Part shown: piece by piece, positions 3,290-53,016 of the stretch
Numbering within the stretch: position 1 is the stretch's first letter
Layout of the letters: each line of letters begins with the position of its first letter
Source: an uncultured Clostridia bacterium
GTDB taxonomy: Bacteria; Bacillota; Clostridia; Oscillospirales; Acutalibacteraceae
Reading direction: 5' to 3'
Assembly: GCA_946627725.1 (NCBI GenBank)
Contig: CAMOVW010000001.1
Location: 1-54,085, forward strand
DNA: 54,085 nt
Translations under genes and position numbers: made by a program
Notes under the pieces: generated by a model
What the model was told of the DNA's origin: nothing
Database searches by the model: none
What the model saw: only the letters and a program-made list of their open reading frames with translations

Positions 3290-3553
3290 ATGATTTTTCA
3301 CATTACGCCGAACATCTGCGAAACTGCCCTTGTCGTCGATGAATTGCCGGAAATCGGCAAACCGTTCTGCTGCGGCCCGTATATCGCCGCCCGCGTCCTG
3401 TCCTTGGAGCCGTGCCCGTACACTTGCCCGCAAGACGAGCACCAGGAAGCCCTGCAATATGCTGTGTGGCGTGTCAACTATGAACCCGTTTCCGACCCGC
3501 ACGATGATTATTTCTACGTCGCCATTCATGAGCCAGAATCCGAAACCATATAA
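3290..3553 (+). CDS. hypothetical early protein
   Basis: ORF 3257..3553 trimmed to ATG 3290 behind GAAGGAGGTACACC. Confidence 0.6.
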   Translation: MIFHITPNICETALVVDELPEIGKPFCCGPYIAARVLSLEPCPYTCPQDEHQEALQYAVWRVNYEPVSDPHDDYFYVAIHEPESETI

Positions 3554-44376: not shown

Positions 44377-44748
44377 CTAATCTGCGTTTGCACGCAATTC
44401 CTGGTAGTTGTCCGGCGGAGCGGGTCGCGGTGCCCACTTCCGCACGTCGCTGGGCTTTTCCACCTGATGCCAGCCACGCACGCGCAGATCGCCGTGACTG
44501 TCAATGACGAGGATGCAGGATTGAGGGTCTGCGTCCTCCTTGGTCGGCAGCCTGTCGTGCGGGTCGATCCACTCCGTCGGCGGCTCCTGCCAGTACACAT
44601 TGAAGCGGTTTTCGCGGGCTTTGAGGGTGCTGTACACCATGGCCCCTTGAAAGACGTGCCACACGATGATGCAGCGCGCGTCCTCCTTGTTCTCTGCAAT
44701 CGGACAGGTGGATATGTCCTTCCATCCGTTATTGCCCATCCTGCCCAC
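44377..44748 (-). CDS. DUF551-like phage protein
   Basis: Start is GTG 44748 or ATG 44739. W…DRLP…VLV pattern. Confidence 0.5.
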   Translation of the reverse strand: MGRMGNNGWKDISTCPIAENKEDARCIIVWHVFQGAMVYSTLKARENRFNVYWQEPPTEWIDPHDRLPTKEDADPQSCILVIDSHGDLRVRGWHQVEKPSDVRKWAPRPAPPDNYQELRANAD

Positions 44749-45004
44749 CCTTTGCCGGGGCTTCCAGAATGATCCCGCGCTTTTTCAGCTTCTCCGCCCA
44801 TACAGCCTTTGTCATGTCCGTACAATGGCTCATGGCGTCCCACCAGCTCGGAAAGCGCTTGTTCGCCTTGAAGAACTGGTTTTGATAGTACAGGCTGTCC
44901 CTGTCGTGTGGGTCGCGCTCGTCGTGCTTCGTCGCGCAGACGGGGCACGTTCCGGGCACCGGCGCTGTGATCCTGATTTCATCCATGCCGTCAGATGGAC
45001 GCAT
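44729..45004 (-). CDS. hypothetical protein
   Basis: ATG 45004 behind AAGGAGG. First gene after the non-coding island. Confidence 0.5.
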   Translation of the reverse strand: MRPSDGMDEIRITAPVPGTCPVCATKHDERDPHDRDSLYYQNQFFKANKRFPSWWDAMSHCTDMTKAVWAEKLKKRGIILEAPAKGGQDGQ

Positions 45005-45259
45005 GGCAACCTCCTTTCTTGTGGTGTTGGCAAATGCCCGTCTTTCCGGGCTGTCATGGCTGCCGGACGGCGGCTCACAGGCCGCCATTATCCGGCAAAA
45101 TGGGCCGGTCTTTCCCGGCTGCCATCCGTCGCTCTCCGAACGTCACGCCTGTACGTCTTCGCTGCTTTGTCGGAAAGTAGCTTCTCCGGCGTCCGAGTCC
45201 CTGCAACGTCCAGGTTAGGCGTTTGCGGGGTTGCGTAACCTGAAAGAAAGTTGTTCCCC

Positions 45260-45341
45260 TGGTGTGAGCGCCCGGATTTGAACCGGGAGCGGCGTCTTTC
45301 AGCCGTTTGCCATTGGCAATCTTTCAGCCAATCACGCCCGC
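45260..45341 (-). ncRNA. tRNA-like module A (T-arm + 3' acceptor strand + CCA, no matching 5' strand found)
   Basis: Minus strand …GGCGT…ACGCC GCT CCCGG-TTCAAAT-CCGGG CGCTCAC A CCA. Shares GCGGGCGTGAT and the trailing CCAGGGG with module B. Confidence 0.35.
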
Positions 45342-45439
45342 ATGTTTGCCGGTCTTTCCCGGCTGCCAGCCGCGCTTAATTCTCGGCTGTCACGGATGTA
45401 CTTTTTAACGATGGCCCCGACACATCGGAGGCGTCCCCC

Positions 45440-45577
45440 TGGAGCTGCGGGGCGGAATCGAACCGCCCAGACGTGCGTTCGGCGTGATTTTCGGTATAGT
45501 TAAGGAGGTCAATCCCAACGAAGAAGATCATCTGCAATGGTTCTTATCATCACGCCCGCCTGCAAACCTGCCGCAGC
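45440..45577 (-). ncRNA. tRNA-like module B, 138 nt (closed acceptor stem, canonical T-arm, encoded CCA, non-canonical interior)
   Basis: 5' GCTGCGG pairs 7/7 with CCGCAGC before T-CCA. T-arm GGCGG-TTCGATT-CCGCC. Internal 8-bp helix GGCGTGAT/ATCACGCC (45549-45556 with 45481-45488). No D or anticodon arm fits. Confidence 0.4.
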
Positions 45578-45580
45578 GCG

Positions 45581-45643
45581 TCAGCTCGTCTTAATGATCC
45601 ATGCGATAAACAGCACGATCAAAACCCACCAATACCACGCCAT
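45581..45643 (-). CDS. 20-aa hydrophobic mini-ORF (MAWYWWVLIVLFIAWIIKTS)
   Basis: GGAGG lies 8 nt upstream of ATG 45643. The stop is 3 nt before module B. Too short to appear in the ORF track. Confidence 0.35.
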   Translation of the reverse strand: MAWYWWVLIVLFIAWIIKTS

Positions 45644-45657
45644 AGCTCGCGCCTCCG

Positions 45658-45948
45658 TCAATCGTACACTTCCCGAAGATTCTTCTCGCACCAGTTGAGC
45701 GCCAGGTTGTACCGCAGCGTCGCGCAGTACACCAATTCGCTGTTGGCGTCGATCCGCACAACCTCGGCGATGCGGTTCCTGTCCCCGGAAAAACCGACAA
45801 AGATTTTATCGTCCCAGCGTGTCGTCCCGTTCCGGCGCTTCGCCGCCGTCCAGACGCTCGCAATCGTGCTCAACTTTCCTTCCTTCACGAAAGCGGCCAA
45901 TTCCCGCAGTTGATCCGGGTTTTCGATGTGAAAGCGCTTCGCGGCCAT
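45658..45948 (-). CDS. hypothetical early protein
   Basis: 96 aa with ordinary composition. Confidence 0.6.
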   Translation of the reverse strand: MAAKRFHIENPDQLRELAAFVKEGKLSTIASVWTAAKRRNGTTRWDDKIFVGFSGDRNRIAEVVRIDANSELVYCATLRYNLALNWCEKNLREVYD

Positions 45949-47557: not shown

Positions 47558-47929
47558 GTGGGAGAAATAAGAAAGACCGTAGGAGAGAATATTAAGAAGG
47601 TCTGCCAACTAAAGGGAATACGACAGGTTGATATATCGGAGCACATGAAGGTGTCACAGGGCACGGTTTCCAATTGGTTCAAAGGCACGAACTCAATAGA
47701 TATTGAAAACCTCGCCGAATTGTGCTCTTTCCTCGGCGTTTCATTGGATCAGATTTTCGGCGTGGCCCCGCTGACGCCAGAAGTTACATTGTCACAGGAA
47801 GAAACCGACCTTTTGAGCATGTTCCGTGCTTTGAACAGCCAGGGGAAGGATATGCTCATGAGCACAGCCCGCGCTTTTGCGGGCAATCCTGATATGCAAA
47901 AAGAAAGTACGAAGTCAAAGATGGCGTGA
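47558..47929 (+). CDS. CI-like XRE-family repressor (no peptidase domain)
   Basis: GTG start behind AAGGAGG. N-terminal HTH QVDISEHMKVSQGTVSNWFKG. Confidence 0.8.
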   Translation: MGEIRKTVGENIKKVCQLKGIRQVDISEHMKVSQGTVSNWFKGTNSIDIENLAELCSFLGVSLDQIFGVAPLTPEVTLSQEETDLLSMFRALNSQGKDMLMSTARAFAGNPDMQKESTKSKMA

Positions 47930-47966
47930 TCTACCCGGAACGATGGTGGAAAGGAAGGGAAATCCC

Positions 47967-48545
47967 ATGAAGAAGATAATCGCCCTGGTGCTCGTGCTGC
48001 TGATGCTGCCCGCCGTCGCCTCCGCAGAAAAAACGGATAGGCGCGGGCTTGTGGAGTTTATCGAGCTGTACGCCTCGCGTTTCGCCGTATTCGCCCATGA
48101 AAACGGGCTGGAATTTGACACAGCCCCGTTGTCGTCGCTTCCGCCGTGGAAAAGCGGCGATCTGCTCATGTTTGAAACGAGCGCCGGGACGGCTGGCGTC
48201 TATCCCGGCGGCTATGATCTGCACGATCTGGTTATGACCTTTTACTCGTTGTCGGACGACGATGCAGACAATGAGCTGTATGCTACAAGCTGCGTAATTG
48301 CCATATCCGCCCTTGAATTTGATGCGCAGTATGAAGTCGGCCCGTCCCTTGCAAGGAAATCCGCCGTCGAAGATGCAGCCGCCATATTTGAAGAAATGGG
48401 AAACGGGCTGGAAGAAGCGCTGACGCAATCAATGGAGGAAGGGGGGCGCGTCCTCATATACTCCGGGAACTATGATTATTATGCCGAATACGCCACCATG
48501 GGCAACCGTGACTTCGTATATCTGATAGCAGAAGAAAGACAATAA
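47967..48545 (+). CDS. secreted protein (lysogeny-module moron)
   Basis: ATG 47967. Signal peptide MKKIIALVLVLLMLPAVASA. Lies between repressor and integrase. Confidence 0.65.
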   Translation: MKKIIALVLVLLMLPAVASAEKTDRRGLVEFIELYASRFAVFAHENGLEFDTAPLSSLPPWKSGDLLMFETSAGTAGVYPGGYDLHDLVMTFYSLSDDDADNELYATSCVIAISALEFDAQYEVGPSLARKSAVEDAAAIFEEMGNGLEEALTQSMEEGGRVLIYSGNYDYYAEYATMGNRDFVYLIAEERQ

Positions 48546-48659: not shown

Positions 48660-50276
48660 ATGAAAACCGTTAAAACCCAAAGCGGCGCGACGAAAGCGGT
48701 AATCTATGCCCGCTATTCGTCCCACGGCCAGACGGAGCAATCCATAGAGGGCCAGTTGCATGATAACTACGCCTGGGCGAAACAGCAAGGGATCACCGTC
48801 ATAGGCGAATATATAGACCGCGCCCTGACCGGCACAAAGGACGCCCGCCCGGACTTCCAGCGAATGATTGAGGACGCGGCCAAGCGCCAGTTTGAAATGG
48901 TGATCGTCTGGAAGCTGGACAGGTTCGCCCGCAATCGCTACGACAGCGCCATCTACAAGGCCCGTCTGAAAAAGTACGGCGTCAAGGTCGTGTCCGTAAA
49001 AGAGAACATCACCGACAGCCCGGAAGGAATTATCCTGGAAGGGCTGCTGGAGAGCATGGCGGAATACTACTCGGCCAATCTTTCGCAGAACGTCAAGCGC
49101 GGACTGCGCGAGAGCGTGGAAAAGGGGTATTACTGCGGCGGAAGCATCCCATACGGCTACAAGGCGGAAAACCACCGCCTTGTCCCGGACGAGAAAACCG
49201 CGCCCATCATCCGCTATGTGTTTGAGGAGTACGCCAAGGGCACGTCCAAGAAGGAGATCATCGACGAGCTGAACCGGCGCGGCGTGCGCAACGGGAAGGG
49301 AAACCCGCTGACATATACATCCTTCCAGCATGCCCTACGCATGACCACCTATATAGGGGAGTATGTCTATCAGGGAAAGGTCGTGCCCTGCGCCGATCCT
49401 CTGGTGACGCGGGAAGTGTTTGACAAGGTGCAGGCCCGCCTTGACCGGCGCGCTCATGCTCCCGCCGCTGCCAAGGCTCGCGTCCCGTATCTGCTGCAAG
49501 GGAAAGCCTGGTGCGGCCTGTGCGGCGCGCCCATGTTTGGGGAAAGCGGCACGTCGCACACCGGCGCGCTTCACACCTATTACTGCTGCTACAATCGGAA
49601 ACGGAAAAAGGGATGCAAGAAGAAAACCGAGCGCCGCGATAAGCTGGAAACCTTCATCGTCGCCCGGACGATGGATTATATCTTGACGCCATCCCGTATG
49701 AACAGGATAGCAAAGGCCGTCGTGCAGGAGTATTACAAGGAGTTCTCCGGCTCCCGCGTGGAGAATATGGAAAAGGCCATCGCACAGATAGACCGGGAAA
49801 TGGACAAGCTGGTGGACGCCCTGATTGACGCGCCCAAGGCCGCACACAAGAAAATCTATGCCCGTATGGAAGCGCTGGAAGCGCAGAAAGCGGAATTTGA
49901 AACCGACGCGGCCAAGCTGCGCGTCGCAATGGGCCTCCGCCTGACGGAAAAGGAAGTCGTGTCCTGGCTAAAGACCTTCCGCGACGGCGATCCAGACGAT
50001 CCCGATTTCCGCCGCCGCCTGGTGGACATCTTCATCAATGCCGTGTACGTCTACGACGACAGGATCATAGTCTTTTACAACATCCGGGGAGGCAAACAGG
50101 TGTCGAGCAAAGACCTGTACGAAGCCCTGGAAAGCCCGAAAGATAAAGAAAATTCCAAACCCGAAACAGGTTCGGATTTGGAATCATCTGGCGGGGCGGG
50201 TAATTCTAAATCCGAACCCGAATTTGTATTTGTGCATGGCGTCTTTGGGTGCATTTTCCCATGGGGCGAGGGATGA
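48660..50276 (+). CDS. int: large serine recombinase (integrase)
   Basis: AVIYARYSSHGQ catalytic-Ser region, resolvase and recombinase domains, Cys cluster (CGLCG…YYCCYNRKRKKGC) and a coiled coil. Confidence 0.95.
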   Translation: MKTVKTQSGATKAVIYARYSSHGQTEQSIEGQLHDNYAWAKQQGITVIGEYIDRALTGTKDARPDFQRMIEDAAKRQFEMVIVWKLDRFARNRYDSAIYKARLKKYGVKVVSVKENITDSPEGIILEGLLESMAEYYSANLSQNVKRGLRESVEKGYYCGGSIPYGYKAENHRLVPDEKTAPIIRYVFEEYAKGTSKKEIIDELNRRGVRNGKGNPLTYTSFQHALRMTTYIGEYVYQGKVVPCADPLVTREVFDKVQARLDRRAHAPAAAKARVPYLLQGKAWCGLCGAPMFGESGTSHTGALHTYYCCYNRKRKKGCKKKTERRDKLETFIVARTMDYILTPSRMNRIAKAVVQEYYKEFSGSRVENMEKAIAQIDREMDKLVDALIDAPKAAHKKIYARMEALEAQKAEFETDAAKLRVAMGLRLTEKEVVSWLKTFRDGDPDDPDFRRRLVDIFINAVYVYDDRIIVFYNIRGGKQVSSKDLYEALESPKDKENSKPETGSDLESSGGAGNSKSEPEFVFVHGVFGCIFPWGEG

Positions 50277-52019: not shown

Positions 52020-52119
52020 CAAGCCGAAACGCGGCGCGGGCCGCGTCCGCCGGGGATCGCCTCCCGGCGCTGATGATGGCAGGCGAACACAACACCGAAT
52101 TTTTAAGGAGGCCAACACC

Positions 52120-53016
52120 ATGAAGGATCTGTATTCTGAAATCACCAACGGTATCATTGAACAGCTGGAGCAGGGCGTTATCCCGTGGAAAAAGCCCTGG
52201 ACGGGCGTCAATTCCGGCGCTATCAGTCACGCGACGGGCCGCGCGTATAGCCTGCTGAATCAGATGTTGCTTGCCCGCCCCGGTGAATATATCACCTTCA
52301 ATCAGTGCAAGCAGGAGGGCGGCAAGGTCAAGAAGGGCGCGAAGTCAAAAATTGTCGTGTTCTGGAAGGTGCTGCCCCGCGAAAAGAAGGACGCCGACGG
52401 AAACATTATCACCAACGCCGACGGCAAGCCGATCATTGAAGGGCTGCCCGTGCTCCGTTACTTCCAGGTGTTTCATATCGACGATTGCGAAGGGATCGCC
52501 CCGAAATGGGAAAACAAGCTGCCCGCCGTCGCAAGCCCCGACGAACGCGCCGAAAATGTTTTGATGGATTATGTACGCCGGGAAAACATTCGGCTTGAAA
52601 ACGTGATAGGCGACAAGGCGTATTATTCCCCCTCCTGTGACCTTATCCGGCTGCCGATCATGGAGCAATTCGACAGCACCGCCGAATATTACGGCACCGC
52701 GTACCATGAAGCAACCCATAGCACCGGCCACGCAACGCGGCTAAACCGTTTCACCGGGGACGCTGCCGCCGCCGCTTTCGGCTCCGAATCGTACAGCAAA
52801 GAGGAGCTTGTCGCGGAAATCGGCTCCGCCTGCTGCCTGCATGAATTGGGCCTTGAAACGCCGTCCAGCTTCAAAAACTCCGCCGCCTATATTCAGTCCT
52901 GGCTCCGCGTTTTGAAGGACGACAAGCGAATGATTATCAGCGCCGCCGCCCGCGCCGAAAAGGCCGTCAAGCTGATTTTCAACATCACCGACAGCAAGCA
53001 GGCGGACGGGGAATAA
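52120..53016 (+). CDS. ardC: ArdC-like antirestriction protein (ssDNA-binding N-domain + zincin-like protease domain)
   Basis: GVIPWKKPW N-terminal motif and HEATHSTGH (HExxH) in the C-terminal half. Confidence 0.85.
   Translation: MKDLYSEITNGIIEQLEQGVIPWKKPWTGVNSGAISHATGRAYSLLNQMLLARPGEYITFNQCKQEGGKVKKGAKSKIVVFWKVLPREKKDADGNIITNADGKPIIEGLPVLRYFQVFHIDDCEGIAPKWENKLPAVASPDERAENVLMDYVRRENIRLENVIGDKAYYSPSCDLIRLPIMEQFDSTAEYYGTAYHEATHSTGHATRLNRFTGDAAAAAFGSESYSKEELVAEIGSACCLHELGLETPSSFKNSAAYIQSWLRVLKDDKRMIISAAARAEKAVKLIFNITDSKQADGE

Follow-up and report, generated by a model that had tools for sequence, protein, structure and literature searches.

What could 573 nucleotides (nt) of untranslated sequence be doing inside the early operon of a phage? 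The window analysed here, the whole 54,085-nt stretch of a contig from an uncultured Clostridia bacterium, is a prophage or phage genome whose early operon lies on the minus strand, and the untranslated island in question (45580-45008) sits within that operon between genes for a 96- and a 92-amino-acid (aa) protein. A first-pass annotation had described the region as a structured one, with two tRNA-like modules and 'no credible ORF' (open reading frame); non-coding and structured it is, although that description missed a 20-codon mini-ORF with its own Shine-Dalgarno (SD) sequence at 45643-45581, after which the untranslated stretch begins. We propose that the island is an array of tRNA-scaffolded, non-decoding small RNAs, excised in the way that tRNAs are and punctuated by a leader hairpin not previously described; a reading to which we would give roughly an even chance.

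Two tRNA-shaped modules

Scanning both strands of the 54 kb for a 5-bp T stem with a UUCRANN loop, an acceptor stem with at least six of its seven pairs and an encoded NCCA returns exactly two objects, modules A and B, where 0.013 would be expected per window and where none of 300 Markov simulations gave more than one. ARAGORN reports no tRNA or transfer-messenger RNA (tmRNA) gene in the window and, at thresholds of 70-80% with introns allowed, only unreliable intron-containing parses; the Rfam tRNA model (RF00005) has no match in the region even at E≤10. Covariance-model scans with Rfam, made at the gathering threshold across the window and at E≤10 across the region, see only a hammerhead elsewhere and the bare T arm of module B (tmRNA model, 13.7 bits), and make no tRNA or tmRNA call. 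The island has no blastn match among 50,697 GenBank phage records, and the 3′ end of module B has no exact match in IMG/VR.

Related loci were located in IMG/VR, in GTDB genomes and in metagenomes by way of homologues of the flanking genes, and all appear to be rumen or gut Clostridia prophages. DNA near-identical to the window occurs in a sheep-rumen Clostridia metagenome-assembled genome (locus L124, where the 92-aa protein is 99% identical) and in a sibling contig of 53,981 bp from a rumen metagenome (L195). The two minus-strand modules are real, and both are kept in related phages, their 5′ strands and interiors included.

Module B (45440..45577, minus strand) is a 138-nt, tRNA-shaped RNA, delineated from its sequence, its minimum free energy (MFE) fold and 10 homologues, and the anatomy first given for it (acceptor, T arm, CCA and an 8-bp interior helix) is as described. 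The acceptor stem, GCUGCGG/CCGCAGC, pairs at 7/7 positions and is followed by a discriminator U and CCA at 45442-45440, and the T arm, GGCGG-UUCGAUU-CCGCC (45467-45451), is the only part with any Rfam similarity. An 8-nt linker, C-A-G-G-U-U-U-G, replaces the D arm. The 8-bp helix, P2b (GGCGUGAU/AUCACGCC, 45556-45549 with 45488-45481), is now joined by a second that had not been noted before, P2a (CAGGCG/CGUCUG, 45562-45557 with 45473-45468), which abuts the T arm, and the interior beyond them, of 60 nt, displays an invariant CCUCCUU (45508-45502). The predicted MFE fold returns the acceptor, the T arm and P2.

In an alignment of 10 long-form variants of module B (131-140 nt, 71% mean identity), 90.9% of the cells in helices are paired, against 77.2% in shuffled controls and 40-50% when partners are slid; 11 of the 26 pairs are altered on both sides, and the covariation score is unmatched by any shuffle (0/500). 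All four helices show compensatory changes, a comparison that the first-pass annotation had proposed, and an extra variant (L279) reads CGGGUG/CAUCCG at P2a. Linker positions C8, G10, G11 and U13 (C.GG.U) and the interior CCUCCUU are invariant, with the linker positions plausibly acting as partners of the T loop. Structural selection on the B family is clear. A short form of 100-103 nt (L153, L155, L156, L003 and L207), with the acceptor GGGAAUG/CAUUCCC, has a normal and covarying D arm (GUGC/GCAC versus GUGU/ACAC), and its anticodon arm is replaced by a stem with a 15-18-nt loop, UCAUG...AACCUCC.

Module A (45260..45341, minus strand), defined from its sequence and six variants, would be an 82-nt, four-arm tRNA-like RNA. 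Its T arm, CCCGG-UUCAAAU-CCGGG (45287-45271), and the following CGCUCAC-A-CCA were correctly identified at the outset; the further statement that this strand lacks a 5′ partner does not hold, since GCGGGCG at 45341-45335 pairs with it at 6/7 positions here, and the pairing is complete (7/7) in L195, the sibling contig, as well as in L198, L199 and L048. The acceptor strand is followed by U8-G9, then by a 6-bp hairpin with the loop UGAAAGAUU (45332-45312) and a 4-bp hairpin with the loop UGAAAGAC (45305-45290); two loops (UGAAAGA) that had been listed as additional GAAAGA hairpins both fall inside this module. The six variants are 96% identical, with a nearly invariant interior, and include a copy in L203 beside a 96-aa protein only 58% identical to that of the window, and one in L048, a contig found independently through the hairpin search described below. 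This conservation argues against a pseudogene. In the acceptor, pairs 4-69 (G.U/G-C), 5-68 (G-C/G.U/A-U) and 6-67 (C-G/U.G) vary, and the copies of the window and of L203 each have a single mismatch besides. A search for further homologues of A added only L048, the remaining matches being chance ones in coding DNA. GGAAAGACC may resemble 23S rRNA positions 2056-2064, a similarity that is not used as evidence.

That the two modules might be paralogous had been argued from two shared sequences, and this we do not sustain. The 11-mer GCGGGCGUGAU is indeed common to both (B 45559-45549, A 45341-45331), but it lies in non-equivalent structural parts; and CCAGGGG, which does follow both modules in the window, is not conserved in relatives and is therefore no evidence for paralogy, the equivalent sequence after B being CCAAGAC in L124 and L196, and the modules of L199 running into CCAGUAG and CCAGCCC.

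With tRNA proper (RF00005) the two modules share the 7-bp acceptor stem, a T arm with a UUCRANY loop, the discriminator and encoded CCA, and U8. They differ in having no 5-bp/7-nt anticodon arm, in being unable to decode and in being missed by both ARAGORN and the tRNA covariance model; B has no D stem, and in its place the 8-nt linker, a 14-bp bipartite helix and the 60-nt loop, whereas A has a 6-bp/9-nt 'D' hairpin and a 4-bp/8-nt 'anticodon' hairpin. In related prophages the interval between the 96-aa and 92-aa genes is a fast-changing cassette array, in which bona fide tRNAs occupy equivalent slots (Trp in L125; Gln, Phe and Thr in L126; Leu in L157) alongside several kinds of tRNA-like module, small ORFs and conserved non-coding blocks. 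Modules A and B take the slots of their sister phages' real tRNAs, behind the same leader hairpin, which precedes most cassettes in the relatives; the island of the window is a short version of the array, with two tRNA-like modules and three hairpins.

The GAAAGA leader hairpin

The most general finding is the motif that sits just 5′ of these tRNA-type genes. Three GAAAGA hairpins had been listed in the first-pass annotation, and exact copies do lie at 45365-45348, 45121-45104 and 45053-45036 of the minus strand, but they were under-weighted there: the hairpin is a widespread, strand-specific phage RNA motif and not a local repeat. Over its 23 nt it reads c-U-G-R-C-A-[5-bp stem]-GAAAGA-[stem]-A. 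With flanks, copy 1 (UGG-CAGCCGG-GAAAGA-CCGGC-A, 45347..45368) lies ahead of module A, which begins 6 nt later, in the register seen for tRNAs elsewhere; copy 2 is UGG-CAGCCGG-GAAAGA-CCGGC-C (45103..45124); and copy 3, UGA-CAGCCCG-GAAAGA-CGGGC-A (45035..45056), is placed 28 nt ahead of the start codon (ATG) of the 92-aa gene, where L002, L003, L151, L153, L155 and L156 also carry a hairpin. The three exact matches to CAGCC[S]GGAAAGAC[S]GGC in the window compare with 0.49 expected for the pattern with up to three mismatches.

A scan of IMG/VR with the pattern yields at least 120 viral loci, of 33-68% GC. In all 121 non-redundant copies the bases at the two variable positions of the stem are complementary (79 G/C and 42 C/G), and positions outside the pattern are also constrained: C(-4) in 58%, U(-3) in 89%, G(-2) in 99%, A/G(-1) in 100% and A(+1) in 76%. 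Relaxed searches recover other stems (AAUCG/CGGUU, UGCGG/CUGCA and GACCG/CGGUC) and GAGAGA loops. Among the variants there are 11 G.U pairs (7 distinct) and no A.C, and the hairpin agrees with the local gene strand by 35:1; together these mark it as an RNA-level, sense-strand element. The same two observations disfavour a DNA palindrome or operator. A sigma-70 promoter was also considered and rejected, as a -10 element at the required spacing would fall within the tRNA, and none is conserved.

A set of 138 non-redundant hairpins was sorted by what comes next: for 25 it is a tRNA accepted by ARAGORN and starting 0-8 nt away (mode 5-6), for at least 27 a module with acceptor and T arm but no ARAGORN call, and for 25 an SD and start codon within 70 nt, the rest leading into other non-coding sequence; typically, the tRNA or tRNA-like gene starts 4-8 nt after the hairpin. 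Behind this leader, then, tRNA-shaped genes that do not decode roughly equal real tRNAs in number. The usual view of phage tRNA genes is that they aid codon usage or replace tRNAs cleaved by host defences; these counts, together with the structural selection on B, suggest that phages also employ the tRNA fold as a chassis that lends processing and stability to RNAs with other functions. Hairpins resembling intrinsic terminators start within 150 nt downstream of 6.8% of the hairpins, versus 1.3% of control positions, a five-fold enrichment.

Phages of Firmicutes, Proteobacteria, Cyanobacteria and Bacteroidota carry the hairpin, temperate and lytic ones alike; Rfam has no entry for it, and the GenBank records of phages leave it without annotation. 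Among cultured phages, exact and intergenic copies are found in those of E. coli (mEp390), Acinetobacter, Stenotrophomonas, Xanthomonas, Pantoea, Aeromonas, Cronobacter, Klebsiella, Pseudomonas, Synechococcus/Planktothrix/Microcystis and Bacteroides. In mEp390 (L193, 2100-2700) a pL-type leader beyond the repressor gene holds one hairpin, with a terminator about 150 nt later, and in an E. coli prophage (L243, 1290-1680) the corresponding leader holds three hairpins and two bare GAGGAAAGACCAA repeats, with an intrinsic terminator among the copies; these look like uncharacterised lambdoid antitermination or processing leaders. A BLAST search, with the E-value cut-off limiting what could be recovered, located the hairpin in prophages of just 5 among 5,426 E. 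coli genomes; it is therefore a phage element and not one of the host.

No Rfam family (Rfam 15) covers the hairpin in the window or in 12 hairpin-bearing loci, and among the papers that could be searched none has the hairpin string in a relevant context, nor was anything relevant found on tRNA-leader hairpins or tRNA-like decoys. The ORFs directly downstream are diverse. Antisense genes beside the hairpins were examined as a possible general feature and set aside, an antisense SD and start codon being present at only 17 of 141 loci, mostly with tiny ORFs.

A published likeness is the theta ribozyme, a minimal ribozyme of the hepatitis delta virus (HDV) type, which adjoins phage tRNAs and has been proposed to aid their maturation (PMC10879173). 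Both are short conserved RNA elements coupled to phage tRNA genes; theta ribozymes, however, are found on the 3′ side of the tRNA, where they fold into a nested double pseudoknot and cleave themselves at the tRNA 3′ end (PMC10879173), whereas the leader element is on the 5′ side, at a distance of 4-8 nt, and consists of a simple 5-bp hairpin. After either CCA in the window there is no HDV-like fold, even with a permissive descriptor that matches 8% of random windows, and no HDV-family Rfam match was found; a theta or HDV-like ribozyme after module A or B is therefore set aside.

A proposed tRNA-scaffolded array and its rivals

How might such an array work? Modules A and B each appear to keep the tRNA top half, namely the acceptor stem, the T arm, a GG-containing partner for the elbow and the encoded CCA, and this half is the part of tRNA recognised by RNase P, by the 3′-end processing enzymes and by the CCA-adding enzyme. 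From this we infer that the modules are cut from the polycistronic early transcript, which would release stable RNAs of about 138 nt (B) and about 82 nt (A). The anticodon half would be replaced by a conserved effector domain specific to each family: in A, two small hairpins with UGAAAGA loops, and in B, the long two-part helix with its 60-nt loop, whose CCUCCUU might pair with ribosome-binding sites or compete with the ribosome. In the sense RNA the CCUCC motif resembles the 3′ tail of 16S rRNA, the anti-Shine-Dalgarno sequence (L159 reads ACCUCCUUUCU).

The leader hairpin most likely marks each untranslated cassette and insulates it. Once RNase P had cut, the upstream RNA would keep the hairpin as a 3′-terminal cap, with a tail too short for exonucleases, and the hairpin may also act as a nut-like signal, allowing RNA polymerase to read through untranslated, structured or terminator-containing stretches. 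These two activities need not exclude each other. Were the hairpin to control tRNA maturation or read-through, phage gene expression would gain a new general feature, and the annotation of non-coding RNA genes in phages a useful marker.

Precedents for parts of this scheme exist. The mascRNA is a tRNA-like processing element, and engineered 'tRNA scaffolds' carry foreign RNA in the place of the anticodon arm. Plant mitochondrial t-elements are tRNA-shaped modules within longer transcripts that recruit the tRNA processing enzymes (PMC1920247). All of these differ from the present case in being eukaryotic, organellar or artificial, whereas here the cargo domains are conserved and encoded by a phage.

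Several points weigh against the scaffolded-array reading and are best taken together. What the sequences establish is the anatomy of the elements, their conservation and covariation, their strand specificity and where they lie in genomes; excision and stability are argued by analogy with tRNA biology. The four-arm fold of A is compatible with its six sequences and, at so low a level of variation, unproven by covariation statistics; its acceptor carries a C2.A71 mismatch in the window and a G3.A70 mismatch in L203. The short form of B, in the relatives that have it, comes without a CCA. The reverse complement of the CCUCC motif reads SD-N7-15-ATG, such that CCUCCUU may reflect the other strand, and the 60-nt loop has no comparable trans target in five relatives that carry their own B variants and cI regions. 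As to the hairpin, it was collected with a fixed-sequence pattern, which under-samples its true variability; terminators follow only about 7% of copies; no protein family occurs at more than 13 loci when 4,307 ORFs from the analysed flanks of 123 loci are clustered; and the 3′-cap role, which fits the 4-8-nt register, leaves the invariant loop and 5′ flank unexplained.

The strongest rival concerns the hairpin, and holds that it is primarily an antitermination or anti-Rho signal of the nut/put kind and not an element of processing or stability. The nut sites of lambda (boxA/boxB) and the put sites of HK022 are small stem-loops with a single-stranded element in early-operon leaders, and the 5-bp stem, purine-rich loop and conserved single-stranded 5′ element of our hairpin recall boxA/boxB. 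Its placement in the pL-type leaders right after the cI gene of mEp390 and the E. coli prophage, upstream of terminators and in the prophage on both sides of one, the five-fold enrichment of terminators downstream, and its position before untranslated RNA genes, as with rrn boxA, all speak for such a role. Saying this, the loop is a 6-nt GAAAGA, nothing resembles the boxA consensus, and a terminator lies within 150 nt of only 7% of copies; the same sequence recurs in phages of four phyla without a shared protein or a recognisable N-like partner, most copies are not promoter-proximal, and the fixed 4-8-nt register to tRNA 5′ ends, like the many copies per operon, would be unexpected for nut sites and is left unexplained by this role. 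We regard it as a serious possibility, albeit a minority one.

Could the modules instead be pure punctuation, that is, cut signals for RNase P and the 3′-processing enzymes that split the early transcript into mRNAs, with interiors of no consequence? The likeness invoked here is the tRNA punctuation of mitochondrial transcripts. Only the acceptor and T-arm half of either module is canonical, the modules lie between ORFs, with B beginning 3-4 nt after a stop codon, and the plant t-elements are a precedent (PMC1920247). It is the interiors, however, that are most conserved (CCUCCUU is invariant, and the interior of A nearly so), and two modules with three hairpins within 575 nt exceed the need of a single cut, so we think this explanation rather unlikely.

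Decay is the next candidate: a tRNA cluster under relaxed selection, of which A and B would be eroded and functionless pseudogenes. Real tRNAs do occur in the islands of relatives, island content turns over fast, the acceptor mismatch of A in the window is missing from its sibling L195, and the tRNA models recognise neither module. Erosion would not, however, be expected to keep non-tRNA interiors, and B retains its four helices through compensatory changes, those of P2a and P2b among them although neither is a tRNA helix, together with an invariant interior motif, whilst A is 96% identical across six copies, one of which neighbours a protein 58% identical to that of the window. We judge pseudogenes to be improbable.

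That B is a decoy, a mimic of tRNA or tmRNA that titrates SmpB, EF-Tu, an aminoacyl-tRNA synthetase or a tRNA-targeting defence nuclease, is suggested by its resemblance to the tRNA-like domain of tmRNA. In layout B is comparable, with an acceptor stem, a short GG-containing linker in place of the D arm (the putative D-loop analogue), a long, covarying P2-like helix that replaces the anticodon stem and abuts the T arm, and an NCCA, and the sole Rfam similarity of B is to the tmRNA T arm; the L159-group linker, cUGGAU.GCGGG, may also resemble tmRNA CUGGAUUCGACGGG. A further point in favour is that phage tRNAs can counter tRNA-cleaving defences (PMC11555353). Against this, B has 138 nt to the roughly 350 of tmRNA, with no tag ORF, no conserved sense ORF and no pseudoknots; at 3-70 the window has U-A and the relatives have G-C, and not the G3.U70 of alanine identity; the T arm is all that the tmRNA models recognise, with scores of 13.7 and 11.6 bits where the thresholds are 84 and 47; and, having no anticodon arm, B cannot act as a decoy for anticodon nucleases. 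A decoy function is, to our minds, distinctly improbable.

Two further rivals are specific to the interior of B, and we think both of them very unlikely. In the first, conservation would be owed to the opposite strand, as the SD and start codon of a small antisense ORF. The arrangement GGAGG-N7-15-ATG is indeed found in L153, L155, L156, L003, L157, L159, L199 and L196, and an antisense SD with ATG also in an unrelated module of L204. The start codon, however, is not stable even between near-identical copies, reading ACG in both the window and L198 but GCG in L195 and ATG in L196, the ORF lengths (34, 57, 135 and 147 codons) are not conserved and merely shadow the conserved 96-aa gene, and no promoter or plus-strand operon reads through; added to this is the scarcity of such arrangements across the hairpin loci, given above. 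Since the start codon varies, the antisense ORF has no conserved length and there is no sign of plus-strand transcription, we favour the sense reading of CCUCC.

In the second, B would be a trans-acting antisense RNA directed at the ribosome-binding site of the gene after the cI-like repressor (start about 47966, plus strand), and so part of a lytic/lysogenic switch, for which P1 c4 and P22 sar are the named likenesses. The B interior at 45534-45490 is complementary to the SD and AUG of that signal-peptide gene (47950-47992, plus strand), with one bulge and a few mismatches, and this translation start gives the best non-self duplex of the B loop in the window, at -50.7 kcal/mol. The local alignment score of 32, however, only just passes the null maximum of 31 from 60 shuffles, any SD followed by an MKK start looks similar, and five relatives have no comparable complementarity; being marginal here and missing there, it is not relied on. 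C4 antisense RNA of phages P1/P7 is a regulatory RNA with a CCA at its 3′ end, which RNase P releases from a longer transcript and whose site of action is a ribosome-binding region; B has no sequence or model similarity to it, the Rfam C4 family gives no match, and no target is conserved in the relatives.

Scars of integration, that is, 3′ tRNA fragments duplicated at attachment (att) sites, as the first-pass annotation had considered, have next to no probability: although both modules carry a T arm, an acceptor 3′ strand and CCA, as is typical of att duplication, they lie mid-operon, some 3 kb from a recombinase that is itself of the serine type, recur at the same internal position in many phages, and have 5′ strands and interiors that are conserved and, in both acceptor halves, covary in relatives.

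Returning to the array of tRNA-scaffolded RNAs, the identity of the hairpin sequence across phyla implies a universally conserved partner, and we offer a more speculative extension, itself rather unlikely. Here, the hairpin would be a pan-phage cis-element that engages a universal host machine, either the RNase P holoenzyme or elongating RNA polymerase, and so gives tRNA-type RNAs privileged processing or read-through; the modules would be a new class of natural tRNA-scaffolded effector RNAs, and B an anti-Shine-Dalgarno mimic that hinders early translation initiation. The halves of the hairpin may resemble the CR-V and CR-I strands of helix P4 in RNase P RNA, a similarity that is not used as evidence.

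Flanking genes and further observations

Between and after the modules lie some lesser features, all on the minus strand. The spacer after module A (45125..45259) has no significant fold, though a block within it, CUCGGACGCCGGAGA...CAGGCGUGACGUUCGGAGAG (45195-45125), is common to the window and L126; the '10-bp hairpin' first noted at 45242-45211 does fold, but no better than shuffled sequence (z -0.8). Between leader hairpins 2 and 3, an extended hairpin, GCCGGAUAAUGGCGGCC...GCCGCCGUCCGGC (45054..45103), is predicted at -27.6 kcal/mol (z -4.5) and has the same sequence in L124.

The 96-aa gene (45658..45948, minus strand) forms the upstream border of the RNA island, and the 92-aa Cys/His-rich gene (44729..45007, minus strand) the downstream one. 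Between the 96-aa gene and module B sits the hydrophobic mini-ORF, MAWYWWVLIVLFIAWIIKTS (45581..45643, minus strand), which stops 3 nt before the module; L124, L195, L196 and L198 have retained it, and the L199 clade lacks it. A B-type module follows the 96-aa gene directly, or past a mini-ORF, in all nine of the first-examined loci and in most further ones, and in a larger metagenome set a few 96-aa homologues precede another tRNA-like module or ORFs instead. The 96-aa family (the window copy and homologues P0001-P0034) is in this way closely linked to B-type RNA modules. AlphaFold confidently predicts an alpha/beta fold for the protein (predicted local distance difference test, pLDDT, 92.9); it has no Pfam, PHROG or PDB-fold match, and so no recognisable RNA-binding fold.

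Elsewhere, the minus-strand early operon carries a Cro-like gene, a DUF1064 resolvase-like gene, DUF3102 and a dUTPase, and the plus strand the cI-like repressor gene (47558-47929) and the serine recombinase gene (48660-50276). In the relatives, a conserved non-coding block of about 110 nt, GGGUUUUAGGAAGUCCUGAACGAAGCCCCUCAAGCG...UGUAAUUGCGGUUG (L124, about 2790-2890), lies before the last hairpin; it is also present in L151, L153, L155, L156, L160 and L207, is absent from the window and has no Rfam match. An ORF of about 99 aa (MENPIYRIKVE...), likewise missing from the window, follows the A-type module in relatives and holds a run of 7-10 G (L002, about 3395-3405; also L124, L160, L197, L216 and L217), a variable run that could be a slippery or phase-variable tract, or assembly noise.

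More odd tRNA-like genes were met in viral contigs (L245, L246, L260 and L278; L216-L219, L226 and L227), for example D-arm-less forms of 66-70 nt and forms with the anticodon arm swapped for a long GC-rich hairpin, and non-canonical tRNA-shaped genes seem to be common in phages. Finally, beyond the serine recombinase gene, the window holds a type II hammerhead ribozyme (52022-52088, plus strand; Rfam RF02276, 56.5 bits against a threshold of 37), in the leader directly upstream of an ORF at 52120-53016 (MKDLYSEITNG...).

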